The translations under genes and the position numbers were made by a program. From Candidatus Omnitrophota bacterium (GTDB lineage Bacteria > Omnitrophota > Gorgyraeia > Gygaellales > Profunditerraquicolaceae), in NCBI GenBank assembly GCA_026416665.1, contig JAOAET010000015.1, positions 4,433 through 68,432 on the forward strand: a stretch of 64,000 nt of DNA. The letters run 5' to 3'. Shown piece by piece: positions 3,301 through 63,639 of the stretch. Position 1 is the stretch's first letter. Each line of letters begins with the position of its first letter. Below the pieces are notes generated by a model that was given only the letters and a program-made list of their open reading frames with translations, had not been told where the DNA came from and did no database searches.

Positions 3301-3375
3301 GGTGAGCCGCCTTGGAATCGAACCAAGAACCTTGACCTTAAGAGGGTCCTGCTCTACCAATTGAGCTAGCGGCCC
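3301..3375 (-). tRNA. tRNA-Lys (anticodon CTT), with CCA encoded.
   Basis: Reverse complement reads GGGCCGCTAGCTCAATTGGTAGAGCAGGACCCTCTTAAGGTCAAGGTTCTTGGTTCGATTCCAAGGCGGCTCACCA. It folds as a cloverleaf with a 7-bp acceptor stem, a T-arm of CTTGG/CCAAG flanking TTCGATT, and an anticodon loop CTCTTAA. Confidence 0.8.
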
Positions 3376-3438
3376 AAAAATAAATTTATGTTATTTTAGC
3401 GTAAAATCTTTTCTTTGGCAAGATACAACCATCTTCAG

Positions 3439-3512
3439 TGCGCCTGGCAGGAGTCGAACCTGCAACGCCCAGCTCCGAAGGCTGGCGCTCTATCCAGTTG
3501 AGCTACAGGCGC
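3439..3512 (-). tRNA. tRNA-Arg (anticodon TCG).
   Basis: Reverse complement reads GCGCCTGTAGCTCAACTGGATAGAGCGCCAGCCTTCGGAGCTGGGCGTTGCAGGTTCGACTCCTGCCAGGCGCA. The acceptor stem is GCGCCTG/CAGGCGC, the anticodon stem is CCAGC/GCTGG with loop CTTCGGA, and the T-loop is TTCGACT. Confidence 0.75.
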
Positions 3513-3628: not shown

Positions 3629-4363
3629 CTAAATAATTTCTGCTTTTGAACCAAGTATTTGTTTTATTTGAAGCAGCTTCTGGTTACTTAAAGGTTTGCA
3701 GTTACATCCTACAGGACAACGCACAGGCGAATTAAGCTGAATTTTATCAGGATTAATCTCGGTAATTACTTTGGCAAGTTTGGAAATGTGTTTGGGTGCA
3801 TCATTTATCCCTTCAACAAGCATTACTTCAAGCCAAATCTTACCTGAATACTCTTTGCGTAACTGTATTAAGCCATTGATAACCTCTTCTATTTTAATAG
3901 AAGGATACGGCTGGTCAATCCTTTCAAAAATATCTTGTTCTACTGCATCAAGAGAAGGCACGATAAGGTCTACCTTAATAATCTCTTTTCTGACTTCTGC
4001 CTTAGACAGAAGAGAAGCATTGGTAATCAAGGCAATAGGTACAGAAGACAACTTTTTAATCTCTTCTATCAATTTACCAATGGCTGAGTTCAGCGTAGGC
4101 TCCCCTGTGCCTGAAAAAGTAATATAAGAAAGTTTCTTTGCCTGTTGTGGATTCTCCTTTAACCAATTGTGTAATTGTTCTAACACTTCTTTGGCTAAAA
4201 CATACTCTTTTTGCTGAATCGTCTTAAAAGTGGTTTTTCCTGCCTGGCAGTAAATGCAATCAAAACTACAGACTTTTGGGGGAGTCAGACTTATTCCTAA
4301 AGAGAGCCCTAACCTTCTTGACTGAATTGGACCGTAAATATAGCTCATAATGAAAACCCCCAC
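3629..4363 (-). CDS. Radical SAM protein of the small COG0731/TYW1-related Fe-S oxidoreductase type.
   Basis: N-terminal YGPIQSRRLGLSLGI followed by CSFDCIYCQ (a CxxxCxxC radical SAM cluster motif), then a glycine-rich SAM region FSGTGEP and C-terminal cysteines CPVGCNC. The true start may be the Met at 4346-4348. Confidence 0.7.
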   Translation of the reverse strand: MGVFIMSYIYGPIQSRRLGLSLGISLTPPKVCSFDCIYCQAGKTTFKTIQQKEYVLAKEVLEQLHNWLKENPQQAKKLSYITFSGTGEPTLNSAIGKLIEEIKKLSSVPIALITNASLLSKAEVRKEIIKVDLIVPSLDAVEQDIFERIDQPYPSIKIEEVINGLIQLRKEYSGKIWLEVMLVEGINDAPKHISKLAKVITEINPDKIQLNSPVRCPVGCNCKPLSNQKLLQIKQILGSKAEII

Positions 4364-21640: not shown

Positions 21641-21665
21641 ATTAAATTAAATTTACGATTTCAAC

Positions 21666-21737
21666 TGGGACGTCTGGACTCGAACCAGAATAGCGAGACC
21701 CAAATTCTCGTGTCCTACCAATTGGACGACGTCCCAA
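21666..21737 (-). tRNA. tRNA-Gln (anticodon TTG).
   Basis: Reverse complement reads TGGGACGTCGTCCAATTGGTAGGACACGAGAATTTGGGTCTCGCTATTCTGGTTCGAGTCCAGACGTCCCAG. The acceptor stem is TGGGACG/CGTCCCA, the anticodon stem is CGAGA/TCTCG with loop ATTTGGG, and the T-arm is TCTGG flanking TTCGAGT then CCAGA. Confidence 0.7.
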
Positions 21738-23073: not shown

Positions 23074-24015
23074 TTATGTAAGAAAAGACGATACTGCGTT
23101 TTCTATATCAGCGGAGGTCAAATTGTATTCACGTAAAAGCTCATCGGGTTCACCTGATTGGCCAAACTTATTTTTTATATTAACCTGCCTTATTCTCACA
23201 GGATAACTTTCTGTAACTACTTCTTGAACCGCAGAAGCAAGACCGCCTACGTTGGAATGTTCTTCACAGACTACAATTCCAGAACACTGCTTTGCAGAAG
23301 TAATAATAGCTTCTTTATCTAAAGGAGAAATAGTGTGCATATTTATTACTCTTACTTTTATGCCCTTTTTAGCCAAGTTATCTGCTGCCTGTAAAGCCTC
23401 ATAGACCATAATACCACAAGCAATAATAGCGGCGTGTTTACCTTCACGCAAGATTTGTGCCTTACCAAAAATAAACTTAGGTTTATTTTCTACAGTGGGA
23501 ACTTTACAACGTGCAAGACGGATATAGAATGGGCCACTAGTTTTAGCAGCGGTCTCAACAGCATCTTTTGTCTGCGGACCGTCACAAGGAATAATAATAT
23601 TCATATAGGGAATTGCCCGCATAAGACAAATATCTTCTAAGGCCTGGTGGCTAGAACCATCGGGTCCTACAGTAATACCTGCATGGCTGGCAACAATCTT
23701 TACATTAAAATTATTATAGGCAATGGTGTTTCTAATCTGCTCCCAAGCCCGACCCGTGGCAAACATTGCAAAACTGGAGGCAAAGACAATCTTACCACAT
23801 GAGGCAAGACCTGCCGCAGTAGCCATCATATTTTGTTCTGCTACCCCAAAGTTAAAAAACCGAGTGGGAAACTCTTTGGCAAACATAGCGGTTTTCGTTG
23901 AAGTAGATAAATCTGCATCTAATACCACTAATTCTGGTATTATTTTACCCAGTTCTACTAATGTTTTACCGTATATGTCACGTTGATGTATAAATTCTGC
24001 CATACTTATGCGCAC
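23074..24015 (-). CDS. Transketolase, C-terminal subunit (pyrimidine-binding and C-terminal domains).
   Basis: 313 aa covering the transketolase pyrimidine-binding and C-terminal domains (FGVAEQNMMATAAGLA). It is paired with an upstream N-terminal subunit ORF. Confidence 0.85.
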   Translation of the reverse strand: MRISMAEFIHQRDIYGKTLVELGKIIPELVVLDADLSTSTKTAMFAKEFPTRFFNFGVAEQNMMATAAGLASCGKIVFASSFAMFATGRAWEQIRNTIAYNNFNVKIVASHAGITVGPDGSSHQALEDICLMRAIPYMNIIIPCDGPQTKDAVETAAKTSGPFYIRLARCKVPTVENKPKFIFGKAQILREGKHAAIIACGIMVYEALQAADNLAKKGIKVRVINMHTISPLDKEAIITSAKQCSGIVVCEEHSNVGGLASAVQEVVTESYPVRIRQVNIKNKFGQSGEPDELLREYNLTSADIENAVSSFLT

Positions 24016-24845
24016 TCTGTATCTTGTTCTAACTCTTTATAAGCTTTTGCTGCCTCTTCATTAGTAGGTGCACAACCGTGAAAATTACAAACATTCTCCA
24101 TAAAAGAAACCCCTTTCCCTTTAGTTGTTCGTGCAATGATTACAGTGGGTTTACCTTTATAATTTTTTGCTGCATCAAATGCCTCAAGAATTTGACGCAT
24201 ATTATGCCCATCGATTTCTATAGTATACCAACCAAATGCCTGCCATTTGGCAACAAGAGGCTCAAGATTCATTATCTCATTAGTTCTGCCGTCTATCTGA
24301 AAACCATTATAATCTACGATTGCACAGAGATTGTCGCACTTATAATGGCTGGCAGCCATAGCTGCCTCCCAAATATTTCCTTCTTGAATTTCACCGTCAC
24401 CCATTAAACAATATACTCGATAATCTTTTTTATCAATCTTGCCAGCAAGACTCATACCTAAAGCAACAGATAAACCTTGTCCCAATGAACCAGAAGCTAC
24501 CTCTACCCCTGGTGTGCGACGGTCAGGATGCCCCTGAAGAATTGACCCTAATTTACGAAGATTTGTTAACTCTCCTTTAGGGAAAAATCCTCTATCTGCA
24601 AGCACGGCATACCACAAAGGACAACAATGCCCCTTGGATAAGTGAAAACGGTCACGGTCAGGCCATTGAGGTTCGTTAGGCCGATGGCGCAAAACTACAT
24701 AGTAAAGAGCAACTACTATATCCGTAGCAGAAAGGCTTCCTCCAGGGTGTCCCGAGCATGCCCTACAAATCATCTCAATAATCTGCTTTCTAATCTGGCG
24801 TGCCTTTTTTTCTAATTCTTTAATTTGCTTGTCATCTATCTCCAT
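24006..24845 (-). CDS. Transketolase, N-terminal subunit (TPP-binding).
   Basis: SGHPGGSLS and CLMGDGEIQEGNIWEA are TPP-binding motifs. The 279-aa ORF overlaps the C-terminal subunit ORF by 10 nt. Confidence 0.85.
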   Translation of the reverse strand: MEIDDKQIKELEKKARQIRKQIIEMICRACSGHPGGSLSATDIVVALYYVVLRHRPNEPQWPDRDRFHLSKGHCCPLWYAVLADRGFFPKGELTNLRKLGSILQGHPDRRTPGVEVASGSLGQGLSVALGMSLAGKIDKKDYRVYCLMGDGEIQEGNIWEAAMAASHYKCDNLCAIVDYNGFQIDGRTNEIMNLEPLVAKWQAFGWYTIEIDGHNMRQILEAFDAAKNYKGKPTVIIARTTKGKGVSFMENVCNFHGCAPTNEEAAKAYKELEQDTECA

Positions 24846-24846
24846 A

Positions 24847-25827
24847 TTATTTTACTTTCTGATTAAGCAACTCAAGCTTTTCTTTAATTGAACCTTTATC
24901 TGGAGCTAGACTTAATGCCTTTTCCAATTTCTCTTTTGCCTTATTAAAATCCTCAATCTTTAAATAGGCCTCTGCTAAATGTTCGAAAATAACTGGGTCC
25001 TCAAGAAGCTGTGCAGCTCTTTCTAATTCTCTGATTGCCTCAGTTAATTTGCCTTGTTTAAAATAAAGCCAGCCTAAACTATCAATATATGCACCATTAT
25101 TAGCATCTAAAGAAAGAGCTTTTTTAATAAGAATTTCTGCTTCCACTAGATTTTGATTTTCTTCAACATAGACATAACCAAGATAATTTAAAGCTGGATG
25201 ATAATCGGGCTTTAATTCTATGACTTTCTTTAGATATTCTATTGCTAATGCACGGTTTTTTTGTTCATCCACAATATAAGCCAAATAAAAAAATGCCTCA
25301 TAATCCTGTGGTGCTATTTCAGTAACGGTCTTAAAAGTTTTCTCAGCAGCTGGAAAATTCTTTTGCTGTAGGTACAAGAGTCCCAAACTCTTATAAATTG
25401 TTACGTTGGTAGGGTCCAATTTAACTGCGTTTTGCAAAGCAGACTCGTACTCTTTACCTGCCTCTGCAACATTATTTTGAAAGAAATATAATAGTGCCAA
25501 AACTGCATGTGGTTCAACAGCATCAGGGGCTATTTTGATAGCAGTCTTAAGTTCTTCAATTGCTTGAGATACTTGATTTTTCTTTAAGTAGGCACTGGCC
25601 AATGCTAAACGAATAGTAACATTATCACTATCGAGCTTAAGCGCCTTTTTATATTCTGAGATTGCTGCTTCTATTTGTTGGTTTCTTTCATAAATACCAC
25701 CCAGAATAAAATGTGTCAGAGCATCCTTAAGTTTTATATCTCTTGCCTGTATACAGGTAGTTGCCAACAAACAAATCCCTAAGGTAATAGTAAATAGCCT
25801 AGTATAACTAGATATATTAACAGACAT
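24847..25827 (-). CDS. Tetratricopeptide (TPR) repeat protein with an N-terminal signal/lipoprotein-like leader.
   Basis: A hydrophobic N-terminus with Cys (LLATTCIQA), followed by many 34-residue TPR-like repeats of the A..Y..LG..Y type. Confidence 0.7.
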   Translation of the reverse strand: MSVNISSYTRLFTITLGICLLATTCIQARDIKLKDALTHFILGGIYERNQQIEAAISEYKKALKLDSDNVTIRLALASAYLKKNQVSQAIEELKTAIKIAPDAVEPHAVLALLYFFQNNVAEAGKEYESALQNAVKLDPTNVTIYKSLGLLYLQQKNFPAAEKTFKTVTEIAPQDYEAFFYLAYIVDEQKNRALAIEYLKKVIELKPDYHPALNYLGYVYVEENQNLVEAEILIKKALSLDANNGAYIDSLGWLYFKQGKLTEAIRELERAAQLLEDPVIFEHLAEAYLKIEDFNKAKEKLEKALSLAPDKGSIKEKLELLNQKVK

Positions 25828-26013
25828 TTGTTCGGAAGGATTATTTTCTTATAATTTAATCATTTATGGTTAAAAGTCCTGTGGAAAAAAATATCCCTTT
25901 TTATTTTGGCGGTTTAGTCTTACTAGACACAACAAGTTAAAGACAGAAAAATCACCCGCCTCTTTCTTTAATAAAAATGAGTTACTCAATATAAGCTTTC
26001 TTAATTTTAAATC

Positions 26014-26115
26014 TTAACCCCAATCACGTTTCTTGAGGTGGCGACGAAGGCGACGCATCTTTTTTCTTTTGTGCGTCCTTATCTTCCTTCTTTTTCGTTT
26101 CCTTCCACAAGGCAT
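26014..26115 (-). CDS. Unannotated 33-aa highly basic small protein, possibly ribosomal protein bS22-like.
   Basis: An ATG at 26113-26115 is preceded by GGAGG with 6-nt spacing (plus strand cctcc at 26122-26126). The translation is MPCGRKRKRRKIRTHKRKKMRRLRRHLKKRDWG, with stop TAA at 26014-26016. It falls below the ORF-track size cutoff. Confidence 0.45.
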   Translation of the reverse strand: MPCGRKRKRRKIRTHKRKKMRRLRRHLKKRDWG

Positions 26116-26126
26116 CTGTGCCTCCG

Positions 26127-27011
26127 TTAGTAAATTAGTTTGTTTAGAGGATACTCAATAATACCTTCTGCACCTGCCTTTTTTAAAGCAGGAATTAAAT
26201 TTCTTACCAGATGCTCATCAATAATCGTCTCTACGGCTACCCAACCTTCAGTAGTAAGGTTTGAGATGGTTGGTTTTCTTAAAGCCGGAAGAATTTTAAT
26301 TATTTTCTCTACATCTTTTTTCTGCACATTCATCTTCAAACCAACTTTTCCTTCAGCAGCAATAGCCCCTTGTAATAACAAAGCAATCTGTTCCATCTTA
26401 GCTCTTTTGTTCTTATCACGATAAGACACTGGGTTAGCAATAAATTGTGTTGTAGATTCACAAAGAGTTGCAATCTCTACTAATTTATTCGCTCGAAGAC
26501 TTGACCCTGTCTCAGTTAAATCTACTATTGCATCTACTAATCCTGCATTAACCTTAACCTCTGTTGCCCCCCAAGAAAATTCAACTTCTACCTTCACCTT
26601 TAGTTTAGCAAAGTAGTCCTTGGTAACATTAACTAATTCGGTAGCAATGCGTTTTCCTGCCAGATCTTTTGGTGATCTATACGGGCTATCCTGGGGAACA
26701 GCCAAAACCCAACGAACTTTATTCATACTCTGTTTTGCATAGACCAAATCACAAATTCTGATTACCTTTGCACGATTTTCCAATATCCAATCATTCCCAG
26801 TAATACCACAGTCCAATGCTCCATCTTGAACATAACGAGCCATTTCTTGAGCACGTAAGAGCACTGCCTCTATCTGTGGGTCATCAATGGAAGGAAAATA
26901 AGACCGTTCAGAAGAAAGTAAAACCTTAAACCCAGCTTTCTGAAACATCCGAAAAGTTGCTTCCTGCAGACTTCCTTTTGGTAAACCCAGTCTTAATTTT
27001 TTTTCTACCAT
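26127..27011 (-). CDS. hisG: ATP phosphoribosyltransferase, long form.
   Basis: [30 protein letters not shown] is a HisG N-terminus, and at 294 aa the ORF is long enough to include the C-terminal regulatory domain. Confidence 0.85.
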
Positions 27012-27076
27012 AGATTCTGCCCCTTTTTAATCCAAGACTTAAAACACGAATTGTTATTATAACCAGAGACTAACTA

Positions 27077-27122
27077 CTTGTAAAGGACAATTTTATACTT
27101 AGTAACCTTTTTCCTTTACAAG
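27077..27122. repeat. Perfect 11-bp inverted repeat (cttgtaaagga ...24 nt... tcctttacaag) in the hisG/ppiD divergent intergenic region.
   Basis: Read directly. Arms are at 27077-27087 and 27112-27122. Function is unknown; an operator or RNA hairpin are both possible. Confidence 0.8.
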
Positions 27123-27202
27123 CCGAAATAGCTTAATATAATAATTATATCTTCTTCATATAAGAATATTTACTTTTTAGCAATTAGCTCTGGGAGGTAG
27201 CA

Positions 27203-28636
27203 ATGCTTAAAAAAATCCACGGTAAAGATTGGCAGAAACGAAAAAAAAGATTGATAATTATAATGGCTGCTCTTATTTTGCCAGGTTTTTTATTCTTTGG
27301 TATCTACTCATCATTTCGTTCCTTAAGTCGACAAACTGAAAATGCTTATGGATGGCTTTTCGGCAAACCAATCAAAGAAGAAGATTATGTAGCTGCGGCT
27401 AAGGCAATAGATATTCAACTTAAGGTTTCTTTAGGCGAGGCCTTCTATCAATTACAAAAGTTTTTCCCTCGTGATGAACTTGTGCGTCAAAGATTGGTGA
27501 TGCTAAACGAAATTAAAAAAAGAAAGATACGTGTTTCAGATAAAGAAGTAATTGACCAGATTCAAAAGGATCCTTCTTTTTACAGAAAAGGAGTTTTTGA
27601 TAAAGAACTTTATGAACAAATTATTCGCTATGGCTTAGGTATTTCTGCTAGAAATTATGAGGAAATTACCCGTCAGAACTTAGCTATACGTAAACTCTTT
27701 GAAGAAGTAACTAAAAGTGTCTTGGTTTCTGATGAAGATCTTAAAGAAATCTATCAAAAAGAAAACCAACAGTTTAGTGTTACTTACATTGCAGCAATAC
27801 CCGAATCCTTTATTAATTCACTTGAGCCGACAGAGGAACAGTTACGTCAATATTTTGAAGAACACGCTGGGGAATTTCAAACTAAGGAAAGATTTGTCCT
27901 TGAATATGTAAAGTTAGAAAATAAAGACCAGATTCCTGACCTTACACAAAGATTATCAAACAAGCAGACATTTGAAAAAATCTGTCAGGATTATAATCTG
28001 ACTGCTATGACTACTGAGCCCTTTAGTCTAAACGAAAGTAATATTATACCCTCTATTGGTTTATCAAAAGAACTGTCAGATATGATTAAACAATCTAATC
28101 CAAAAACAGTTTTACCCGTTGTTGAGGTGGATAAAAAGTTTTATCTGGTTAGAATTAAAGATAGATACCCTCCTGGCCTTGCTAATTTTGAAACAGCCAG
28201 GGAAGAAGTAAAAACAAAATTTATTAAAGAAAAAAGCCGCCAGCTTGCCAAAGAAAAAATTGAGGCTTGTGCTGCCAAATTAAAAGAAAAGAATGTCTCT
28301 AACAGAGAAGATTTTATAAATGTGGCCAAAGAATTTGGACTGAAGACACAAAACACATCTTTATTCGGATATAACAGCTATATTGAGGGCGTAGGTTTAT
28401 CTAACGCCTTCTTTAACGAGGCCTCAAGCTTAAAAGATAATCAGATAAGCCAAGTTATTGAGATGCCGTCTGGATTTTACTTGATTATGGTAAAAGAAAG
28501 GCCTGTCTTTGATCAGCAAAAATTTACCCAAGAGAAAGAACAATTACGCCAAAAAGTTCTTACGGAAAGAAAACAAGAATATTTTGATAACTTCATAAAA
28601 GACCTAATGAAAAAAGCTGAAGTAAAAAATAAATGA
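27203..28636 (+). CDS. PpiD/SurA-like periplasmic chaperone (membrane-anchored peptidyl-prolyl isomerase family).
   Basis: An N-terminal TM anchor (LIIIMAALILPGFLFFGIY) and a long helical chaperone region. The C-terminus has a parvulin-like segment (IEMPSGFYLIMVKERP). Confidence 0.55.
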   Translation: MLKKIHGKDWQKRKKRLIIIMAALILPGFLFFGIYSSFRSLSRQTENAYGWLFGKPIKEEDYVAAAKAIDIQLKVSLGEAFYQLQKFFPRDELVRQRLVMLNEIKKRKIRVSDKEVIDQIQKDPSFYRKGVFDKELYEQIIRYGLGISARNYEEITRQNLAIRKLFEEVTKSVLVSDEDLKEIYQKENQQFSVTYIAAIPESFINSLEPTEEQLRQYFEEHAGEFQTKERFVLEYVKLENKDQIPDLTQRLSNKQTFEKICQDYNLTAMTTEPFSLNESNIIPSIGLSKELSDMIKQSNPKTVLPVVEVDKKFYLVRIKDRYPPGLANFETAREEVKTKFIKEKSRQLAKEKIEACAAKLKEKNVSNREDFINVAKEFGLKTQNTSLFGYNSYIEGVGLSNAFFNEASSLKDNQISQVIEMPSGFYLIMVKERPVFDQQKFTQEKEQLRQKVLTERKQEYFDNFIKDLMKKAEVKNK

Positions 28637-63197: not shown

Positions 63198-63270
63198 AGC
63201 GGGAGACGGGGTTCGAACCCGCGACAACTACCTTGGCAAGGTAGCGCTCTACCAACTGAGCTACTCCCGC
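63198..63270 (-). tRNA. tRNA-Gly (anticodon GCC).
   Basis: Reverse complement reads GCGGGAGTAGCTCAGTTGGTAGAGCGCTACCTTGCCAAGGTAGTTGTCGCGGGTTCGAACCCCGTCTCCCGCT. It folds as a cloverleaf with anticodon loop TTGCCAA. Confidence 0.8.
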
Positions 63271-63387
63271 AAGTACTAACCTTAACCTTTTATTAAAACT
63301 GTCTTTTTGTCCCTGGCTAAAAAATTTTTTATAAACCTCTTTCGAACAAATTGTTTCCTGAGTTAATTTGTCTGCTGTGGGAACTCC

Positions 63388-63469
63388 TGCGGACGGAGGG
63401 ATTTGAACCCCCACAGGTCTCCCCAACAGCTCCTAAGGCTGTCGCGTCTGCCAGTTCCGCCACGTCCGC
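63388..63469 (-). tRNA. tRNA-Leu (anticodon TAG) with a long variable arm.
   Basis: Reverse complement reads GCGGACGTGGCGGAACTGGCAGACGCGACAGCCTTAGGAGCTGTTGGGGAGACCTGTGGGGGTTCAAATCCCTCCGTCCGCA. The anticodon loop is CTTAGGA and the extra arm is GGGGAGACCTGTG. Confidence 0.75.
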
Positions 63470-63566
63470 TCACCTTAGATTAGAAATATCTTATCTCTCA
63501 TTACCACTACTAATTTAATGGTAAACCAGATAAATAATCTCGTCTCTGGTCATCTTAATAATCAAA

Positions 63567-63639
63567 TGAGCCTCCCGCGACTCGAACGCGGCACACCCAC
63601 CTTAAAAGGGTGGTGCTCTACCTGATGAGCTAGAGGCCC
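63567..63639 (-). tRNA. tRNA-Lys (anticodon TTT).
   Basis: Reverse complement reads GGGCCTCTAGCTCATCAGGTAGAGCACCACCCTTTTAAGGTGGGTGTGCCGCGTTCGAGTCGCGGGAGGCTCA. The anticodon loop is CTTTTAA. Confidence 0.8.

Follow-up and report, generated by a model that had tools for sequence, protein, structure and literature searches.

In the window, by which we mean the whole 64,000-nucleotide (64-kb) stretch of Candidatus Omnitrophota DNA that was analysed (G+C content 37.7%), an open reading frame of 33 codons follows hisG on the same strand, 11 nt separating it from the hisG stop codon (Table 1). Its product, MPCGRKRKRRKIRTHKRKKMRRLRRHLKKRDWG, contains 19 K/R and 2 H, that is 21 basic residues out of 33 (64%), and has a pI of 12.0 and a mass of 4.35 kDa. 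Such a content of K/R/H makes it an outlier in the window, as it is the sole ORF above 38% among the 559 that are at least 25 aa long. The start codon is preceded by a Shine-Dalgarno-like motif, in the layout GGAGG-CACAG-ATG. An earlier, sequence-only reading of this DNA had singled out a 33-aa ORF at 26014-26115 downstream of hisG, leaving its strand unstated. The ORF indeed exists and is carried by the minus strand. The GGAGG ribosome binding site that was described upstream of the ATG is also present, but it lies 5 nt and not 6 nt from the start, and the count of 20 residues K, R or H among 33 has to be corrected to 21.

The neighbouring genes of the minus strand, downstream of the small ORF, encode a TPR-repeat protein and, as two separate ORFs, the two parts of a transketolase. 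Upstream of hisG, a consensus scan detected a promoter-like site of the form TTTACA-17-TATAAT, with 11/12 positions identical to the consensus, which suggests a candidate promoter for a unit comprising hisG and the small gene. Back-to-back promoter-like sites, each matching the consensus at 11/12 positions, lie in the intergenic DNA that separates hisG from the divergent PpiD/SurA-like rotamase gene. On the 3′ side of the small ORF, we found one weak consensus match to a terminator, and the downstream RNA fold gave a z of -0.4; there is no convincing terminator after the small ORF and we do not claim one. At the gathering threshold, the Rfam scan of the window returned no match at the small ORF, and no rRNA or other non-tRNA family in the 64-kb window. 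Six tRNA genes were found in the window, three of them clustered.

Table 1. Position of the 33-codon reading frame and of other features of the window.
Feature	Position	Strand	Remarks
33-codon ORF, probable bS22-type gene	26014..26115	minus	ATG 26115..26113, stop TAA 26016..26014
C-terminal tail LKKR[A/D]WG	26014..26034	minus	residues 27-33 of the 33-aa product
Shine-Dalgarno-like GGAGG	26121..26125	minus	5 nt before the ATG of the 33-aa ORF
hisG (ATP phosphoribosyltransferase, long form)	26127..27011	minus	294 aa; upstream of the small ORF; Pfam HisG 1.4e-48, HisG_C 1.8e-26
Promoter-like TTTACA-17-TATAAT	27056..27084	minus	upstream of hisG; 11/12 to consensus, consensus scan only
Back-to-back promoter-like sites	27056..27142		between hisG and the rotamase gene; each 11/12
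PpiD/SurA-like rotamase gene	27203..28636	plus	divergent from hisG
Weak terminator consensus match	25963..25939		3′ of the small ORF
TPR-repeat protein	24847..25827	minus	stop 1 nt upstream of the transketolase N-terminal-part ORF
Transketolase, N-terminal TPP-binding part	24006..24845	minus	separate ORF
Transketolase, pyrimidine-binding/C-terminal part	23074..24015	minus	10 nt overlap with the N-terminal-part ORF
tRNA genes	3303..3512
tRNA genes	21665..21736
tRNA genes, cluster of three	63198..63639	minus

Conservation of the small ORF in related genomes

For comparison, we used 80 hisG-anchored loci, each taken from a distinct species-level genome, in which HisG is 67-82% identical to that of the window; almost all of them bear titles of Candidatus Omnitrophota MAGs. 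A motif scan detected an intact ortholog directly 3′ of hisG, on the same strand, in 73/80 loci. Three loci, where the contig ends 2-23 nt from hisG, were left out as not assessable, and the four remaining misses of the scan all carry the gene. Indeed, two copies start with GTG (L020 and L044), a third (L022) is interrupted by a run of N (about 3990-4070) which masks the middle of the small gene and leaves both of its ends visible, and in the last one a single K-to-Q change hid the ortholog from the scan pattern. The small ORF is present directly downstream of hisG in 77/77 assessable loci of the relatives. Some loci (L005, L009, L019, L021, L024, L066 and others) bear the titles 'uncultured Planctomycetales', 'Margulisiibacteriota' or 'Deltaproteobacteria'. 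They display the same hisG - bS22 - TPR - transketolase order, with a HisG that is 74-79% identical, and probably represent Omnitrophota MAGs whose taxonomic labels are imprecise or erroneous.

Complete copies were available from 75 related loci, which with the window copy makes a set of 76. These are 76 different nucleotide sequences, encoding 50 distinct peptides, and their length is exactly 33 aa in 64 cases and 32, 36 or 29 aa in the others. The mean amino acid identity of the relatives' copies to the window copy reaches 82.5%, compared with about 75% for HisG and about 49% for the TPR protein. In the alignment of 27 Omnitrophota representatives, 13 positions are invariant (M1, P2, G4, K6, R7, K8, H15, K16, R17, K19, R25, H26 and K28) and a further 8 are conserved at 90% or more. 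A Shine-Dalgarno-like motif (AGGAG, GGAGG, GAGG or GGAG) precedes 75 of the 76 copies, ending 4-13 nt from the start codon, in most cases 5-8 nt, and the spacer between hisG and the ORF ranges from 9 to 181 nt. Furthermore, of the 72 loci for which enough DNA is available, 71 show the collinear order hisG - small ORF - TPR protein - transketolase N-subunit.

Relationship to ribosome-bound bS22 and to the curated profiles

When the window peptide was compared by phmmer with 177,635 distinct PDB sequences, three matches only were obtained, and all are ribosome chains occupying the bS22 position: 8FMW_V, the bS22 of Borrelia burgdorferi (E 6.6e-6), 7JIL_5, the bS22 of Flavobacterium johnsoniae (E 7.9e-5), and 9I5V_10, named as an AURKAIP1/COX24 domain-containing protein (E 0.0095). 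With a profile built from 27 Omnitrophota sequences, the corresponding values were 1e-10, 1.3e-9 and 1.2e-7, and no other PDB sequence was matched at E<=10. Because K/R-rich peptides could match by composition alone, we ran as a control 20,000 composition-preserving shuffles of the window peptide, of which 0/20,000 reached the observed score, whichever chain was considered (z = 12.3, 12.1 and 9.6 for 8FMW_V, 7JIL_5 and 9I5V_10, respectively). Each alignment starts at residue 1 and runs without gaps, the identities being 21/28, 19/30 and 18/30 in the same order, and the non-basic landmarks M1, P2, G4, I/V/M12, T14, H15 and H26 are in register with all three chains. The size and basicity expected of a bS22 (about 28-33 aa, at least about 60% basic, pI above 12) also fit the window peptide. 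The AF2 single-sequence model consists of one helix spanning residues 5-31 (pLDDT 88.7) with no bend, whereas the helix of a bS22 is expected to be bent. This model is compatible with the role of bS22, but has no discriminating power for a peptide so rich in K/R and computed without its rRNA. Sequence comparison thus supports the assignment of the window protein as a bS22 homolog of the Borrelia/Bacteroidota sequence subtype (MPxGxKRK..K[IVM]xTHKRKK..RH). One relative's copy (L080), MPCGRKRKRAKMAKHKRKKRMRRDRHKKS, of 29 aa and ending in ...DRHKKS, is intermediate between the Omnitrophota and the Borrelia/Bacteroidota forms.

The bS22-like identity put forward by the sequence-only reading is therefore upheld, by PDB matches confined to bS22 chains and a shuffle z of about 12, but not on the basis that it had quoted, the mycobacterial motif KKRRKR..KKKHRKLLRRTR. 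Indeed, in the pairwise comparison of the window peptide with the mycobacterial-type sequence, z is 0.7 and 4713/20000 shuffles reach the score, and no mycobacterial chain occurs among the PDB matches at E<=10, with either phmmer or the profile.

A search of Pfam and other HMM models of bS22 had also been proposed as a check. The scans of Pfam and NCBIfam, PF08213 and NF047430 included, gave no match to the window peptide even at E<=10, which the sequence-only reading had listed among the outcomes that would refute it; the result is however not diagnostic since the solved Borrelia and Flavobacterium chains fail too: 8FMW_V and 7JIL_5 are likewise without a match in either collection, and 9I5V_10 scores 11.8 bits on PF08213, below the cut-off of 23. 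For this reason we did not count the profile result against bS22 membership. As a further control we used a mycobacterial-type bS22 sequence, whose correctness is supported by its score of 62.6 bits on NF047430 (ribo_bS22); it scores 46.2 bits on PF08213 (COX24_C). Both models thus cover just the actinobacterial subtype, to which the window protein does not belong.

A HMMER search of a library of 1.8 billion proteins returned 0 matches at E<=0.001, which is uninformative because a peptide of about 29 bits cannot reach significance in a library of this size. The exact window peptide was not found in public protein records by an exact-sequence look-up. The orthologs were looked up in the protein collections with the 45-aa, mis-started database version of one of them; public orthologs exist, named 'hypothetical protein' only (e.g. 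OQB08986.1) or unnamed, and without any Pfam domain. Public gene callers sometimes over-extend the N-terminus, yielding versions of 43-55 aa (P0005, P0019, P0021, P0027 and P0033). Our literature search found no paper naming bS22 together with Omnitrophota.

Nature of the gene and comparison with known bS22 systems

The 33-codon ORF is a real, strongly conserved coding gene under purifying selection. Over the 76 copies, the entropy at codon positions 1, 2 and 3 is 0.36, 0.24 and 1.11, so that the third position holds 3-4 times the variation of the first two, and the in-frame pN/pS is 0.128 for a pS of 0.78, where synonymous differences are near saturation. One may ask if the conserved object could instead be a non-coding element, such as the hisG 3′ UTR, a terminator or a small RNA, kept open by its purine-richness. 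Several alternative frames are indeed open at the window site, K/R codons and their complements hold few stops, and 51/75 relatives have an open antisense frame 0. However, variation is concentrated at third codon positions, and the pN/pS of 0.13 in frame compares with at least 1.7 in four of the five other frames: the two remaining sense frames have values of 2.4 and 1.7 and the antisense frames of 0.24-1.8, the value of 0.24 being that of antisense frame 1, which is open in only 34/75 relatives. The ORF frame is open in 74/75, the exception being the naturally shorter 29-aa copy, as against only 7-8/75 for the other sense frames. Moreover, the start, the stop and the Shine-Dalgarno motif are conserved, neither the Rfam scan nor the downstream fold (z=-0.4) points to a structured RNA, and no frameshifted yet conserved copy was seen among the 75 complete copies from the 80 loci, all of which makes a non-coding element very improbable. 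As for an ORF open by chance in intergenic DNA of low complexity, it could be suspected from a length of only 33 codons and from the absence of the gene from the initial ORF track, but it is refuted by the comparative data. The ORF is kept in 77/77 loci at a mean amino acid identity of 82.5%, and the nucleotide identity to the window, which is 75.5% in the coding sequence, drops to the random level (28%) over the 60 nt that follow the stop; with the specific PDB homology added, we grant the chance reading practically no credit. We reject the chance-ORF, non-coding and alternative-frame readings because of the codon-position statistics and of the frame openness. The proposal of a missed small protein gene is in this way confirmed by conservation (77/77), pN/pS (0.13) and the Shine-Dalgarno motif (75/76). 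The conservation of the ORF and of its ribosome binding site at the same locus, which had been suggested as a check, was found in these same 77 assessable loci and 75 of 76 copies.

We propose, with a probability of about 0.88, that this gene encodes ribosomal protein bS22, of the Borrelia/Bacteroidota subtype, in this Candidatus Omnitrophota bacterium. One point against it is that the neighbourhood of hisG is atypical for a ribosomal-protein gene. A conserved small basic peptide of bS22 ancestry could be imagined to act outside the ribosome, by binding or condensing nucleic acids, or as a regulator of histidine biosynthesis through its link with hisG. In favour of such a role one could cite the fact that the gene is strictly linked to hisG from one species to the next, which is not usual for genes of ribosomal proteins, and the lineage-specific tail LKKR[A/D]WG, missing from the solved bS22 chains. 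However, the landmark residues of ribosome-bound bS22 are all in register and invariant across the family, and the rRNA pocket of bS22 is described as structurally conserved among bacteria (PMC10618245). In addition, since the whole hisG-ORF-TPR-transketolase block is collinear, the strict linkage may simply reflect this collinearity and need not be functional. We consider a non-ribosomal role unlikely and retain ribosomal protein bS22 as the best explanation.

The bS22 protein was discovered by cryo-EM in Mycobacterium, Bacteroidota and Borrelia, its gene being unannotated or 'hypothetical' in two of them (PMC10618245, PMC7797042, PMC12123416). The Borrelia protein binds in an RNA pocket made up of 16S h2, h27, h44 and h45, also makes contact with 23S H68, and is the one ribosomal protein unseen by standard MS; its gene, unannotated and with a GUG start, is among the essential-gene candidates (PMC10618245). 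In F. johnsoniae and P. gingivalis, bS22 lies between h44 and h45 and contacts H70; it adds a bridge between the subunits, close to the decoding centre and to the aminoglycoside site (PMC7797042, PMC12123416), the C-terminus being the part that reaches the 50S subunit (PMC12123416). In M. smegmatis, a higher susceptibility to kanamycin is reported upon loss of bS22 (PMC7797042, PMC12123416 and a preprint).

By homology with the proteins of these structures, the window peptide, of 33 aa, with a pI of about 12 and predicted to be mostly helical, would insert into the 16S pocket h2/h27/h44/h45, beside the decoding centre, and its C-terminal end would reach 23S H68/H70. It may in this way neutralise RNA charge, stabilise h44 and add an intersubunit contact. 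We infer its incorporation into the ribosome and its binding site from the bS22 homology. The gene is most likely co-transcribed with hisG, as judged from the 11-nt gap and the promoter-like site upstream of hisG, and its product would be translated by independent initiation from its own Shine-Dalgarno site.

The assignment extends the Borrelia/Bacteroidota subtype of bS22 to a third, uncultured phylum, Omnitrophota. Both curated models (NF047430 and PF08213) miss the whole Borrelia/Bacteroidota/Omnitrophota subtype, and the orthologs are labelled 'hypothetical protein'; a new MPxGxKRK..THKRKK profile could be of practical value to recover a ribosomal protein absent from many annotations and ribosomal-protein inventories. 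The value of the finding lies mainly in annotation and in mapping the true spread of bS22. From a biological point of view the finding is only slightly surprising, since the occurrence of bS22 in other bacteria had been explicitly predicted by the authors of the Borrelia study, on the grounds that its short length defeats annotation and that the pocket is structurally conserved among bacteria (PMC10618245).

A broader reading, which we regard as doubtful when taken as a whole, is that the Omnitrophota bS22 is a distinct variant combining a contact of its tail with the 23S rRNA and a co-regulation with hisG. The tail carries Trp32 in 71/75 copies, and seven Omnitrophota copies extend it by GKG (36 aa). 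Since the C-terminus of bS22 reaches the 50S subunit (PMC12123416), this tail with its Trp32 may, speculatively, make an additional lineage-specific 23S rRNA contact at the subunit interface. The coupling to hisG, for its part, might co-regulate a component of the ribosome with the ATP/PRPP-consuming reaction that opens histidine synthesis. Were this joint reading true, the MPxGxKRK..THKRKK subtype would be widespread (Spirochaetota, Bacteroidota, Omnitrophota, probably others) and invisible to the current profile libraries, and the distribution of bS22 in bacteria would approach universality far more closely than is assumed.

Among the known systems, the bS22 of Borrelia (Borreliella) burgdorferi (bb0822; 8FMW_V), composed of 61% K/R (PMC10618245), has an N-terminus, MPCGRKRK, identical to that of the window protein, and the two have in common M1, P2, C3, G4, I12, T14, H15, K16-K19 and R25-H26. 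Annotation either overlooked the two genes or gave them no name. The GTG start of the Borrelia gene is also used in two Omnitrophota relatives (L020 and L044), whereas the window gene uses ATG. The window protein differs by being 5 residues longer, with the tail ...LKKRDWG, and its gene by its position downstream of hisG, in a different phylum.

The Bacteroidota proteins, namely Fjoh_1533 (7JIL chain 5; 30 aa and pI 12.7, PMC7797042), the related 9I5V chain 10 and the Porphyromonas gingivalis bS22, have the register and the motif MPxGxKRKxxK[IVM]xTHKRKK..RH in common with the window protein. However, they carry Ser or Asn at the position of its Cys3, and their C-terminus is a poly-Lys tail (RHKKKK), as opposed to the LKKR[A/D]WG of the Omnitrophota proteins, which none of the solved 28-30 aa bS22 chains possesses. 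Bacteroidota are, moreover, largely devoid of Shine-Dalgarno sequences (PMC7797042), whereas that of the window gene is conserved. The mycobacterial/actinobacterial bS22 (NF047430, PF08213), analogous to the mitochondrial mS38 and the eukaryotic eL41, shares with the window protein its size class (33 aa), its extreme basicity and a predicted helical shape, but a sequence relationship is not detectable (z=0.7, no profile or PDB match). Indeed, the mycobacterial and the Bacteroidota/Borrelia types of bS22 are united by their pocket and their fold, and not by their sequence (PMC7797042, PMC12123416).
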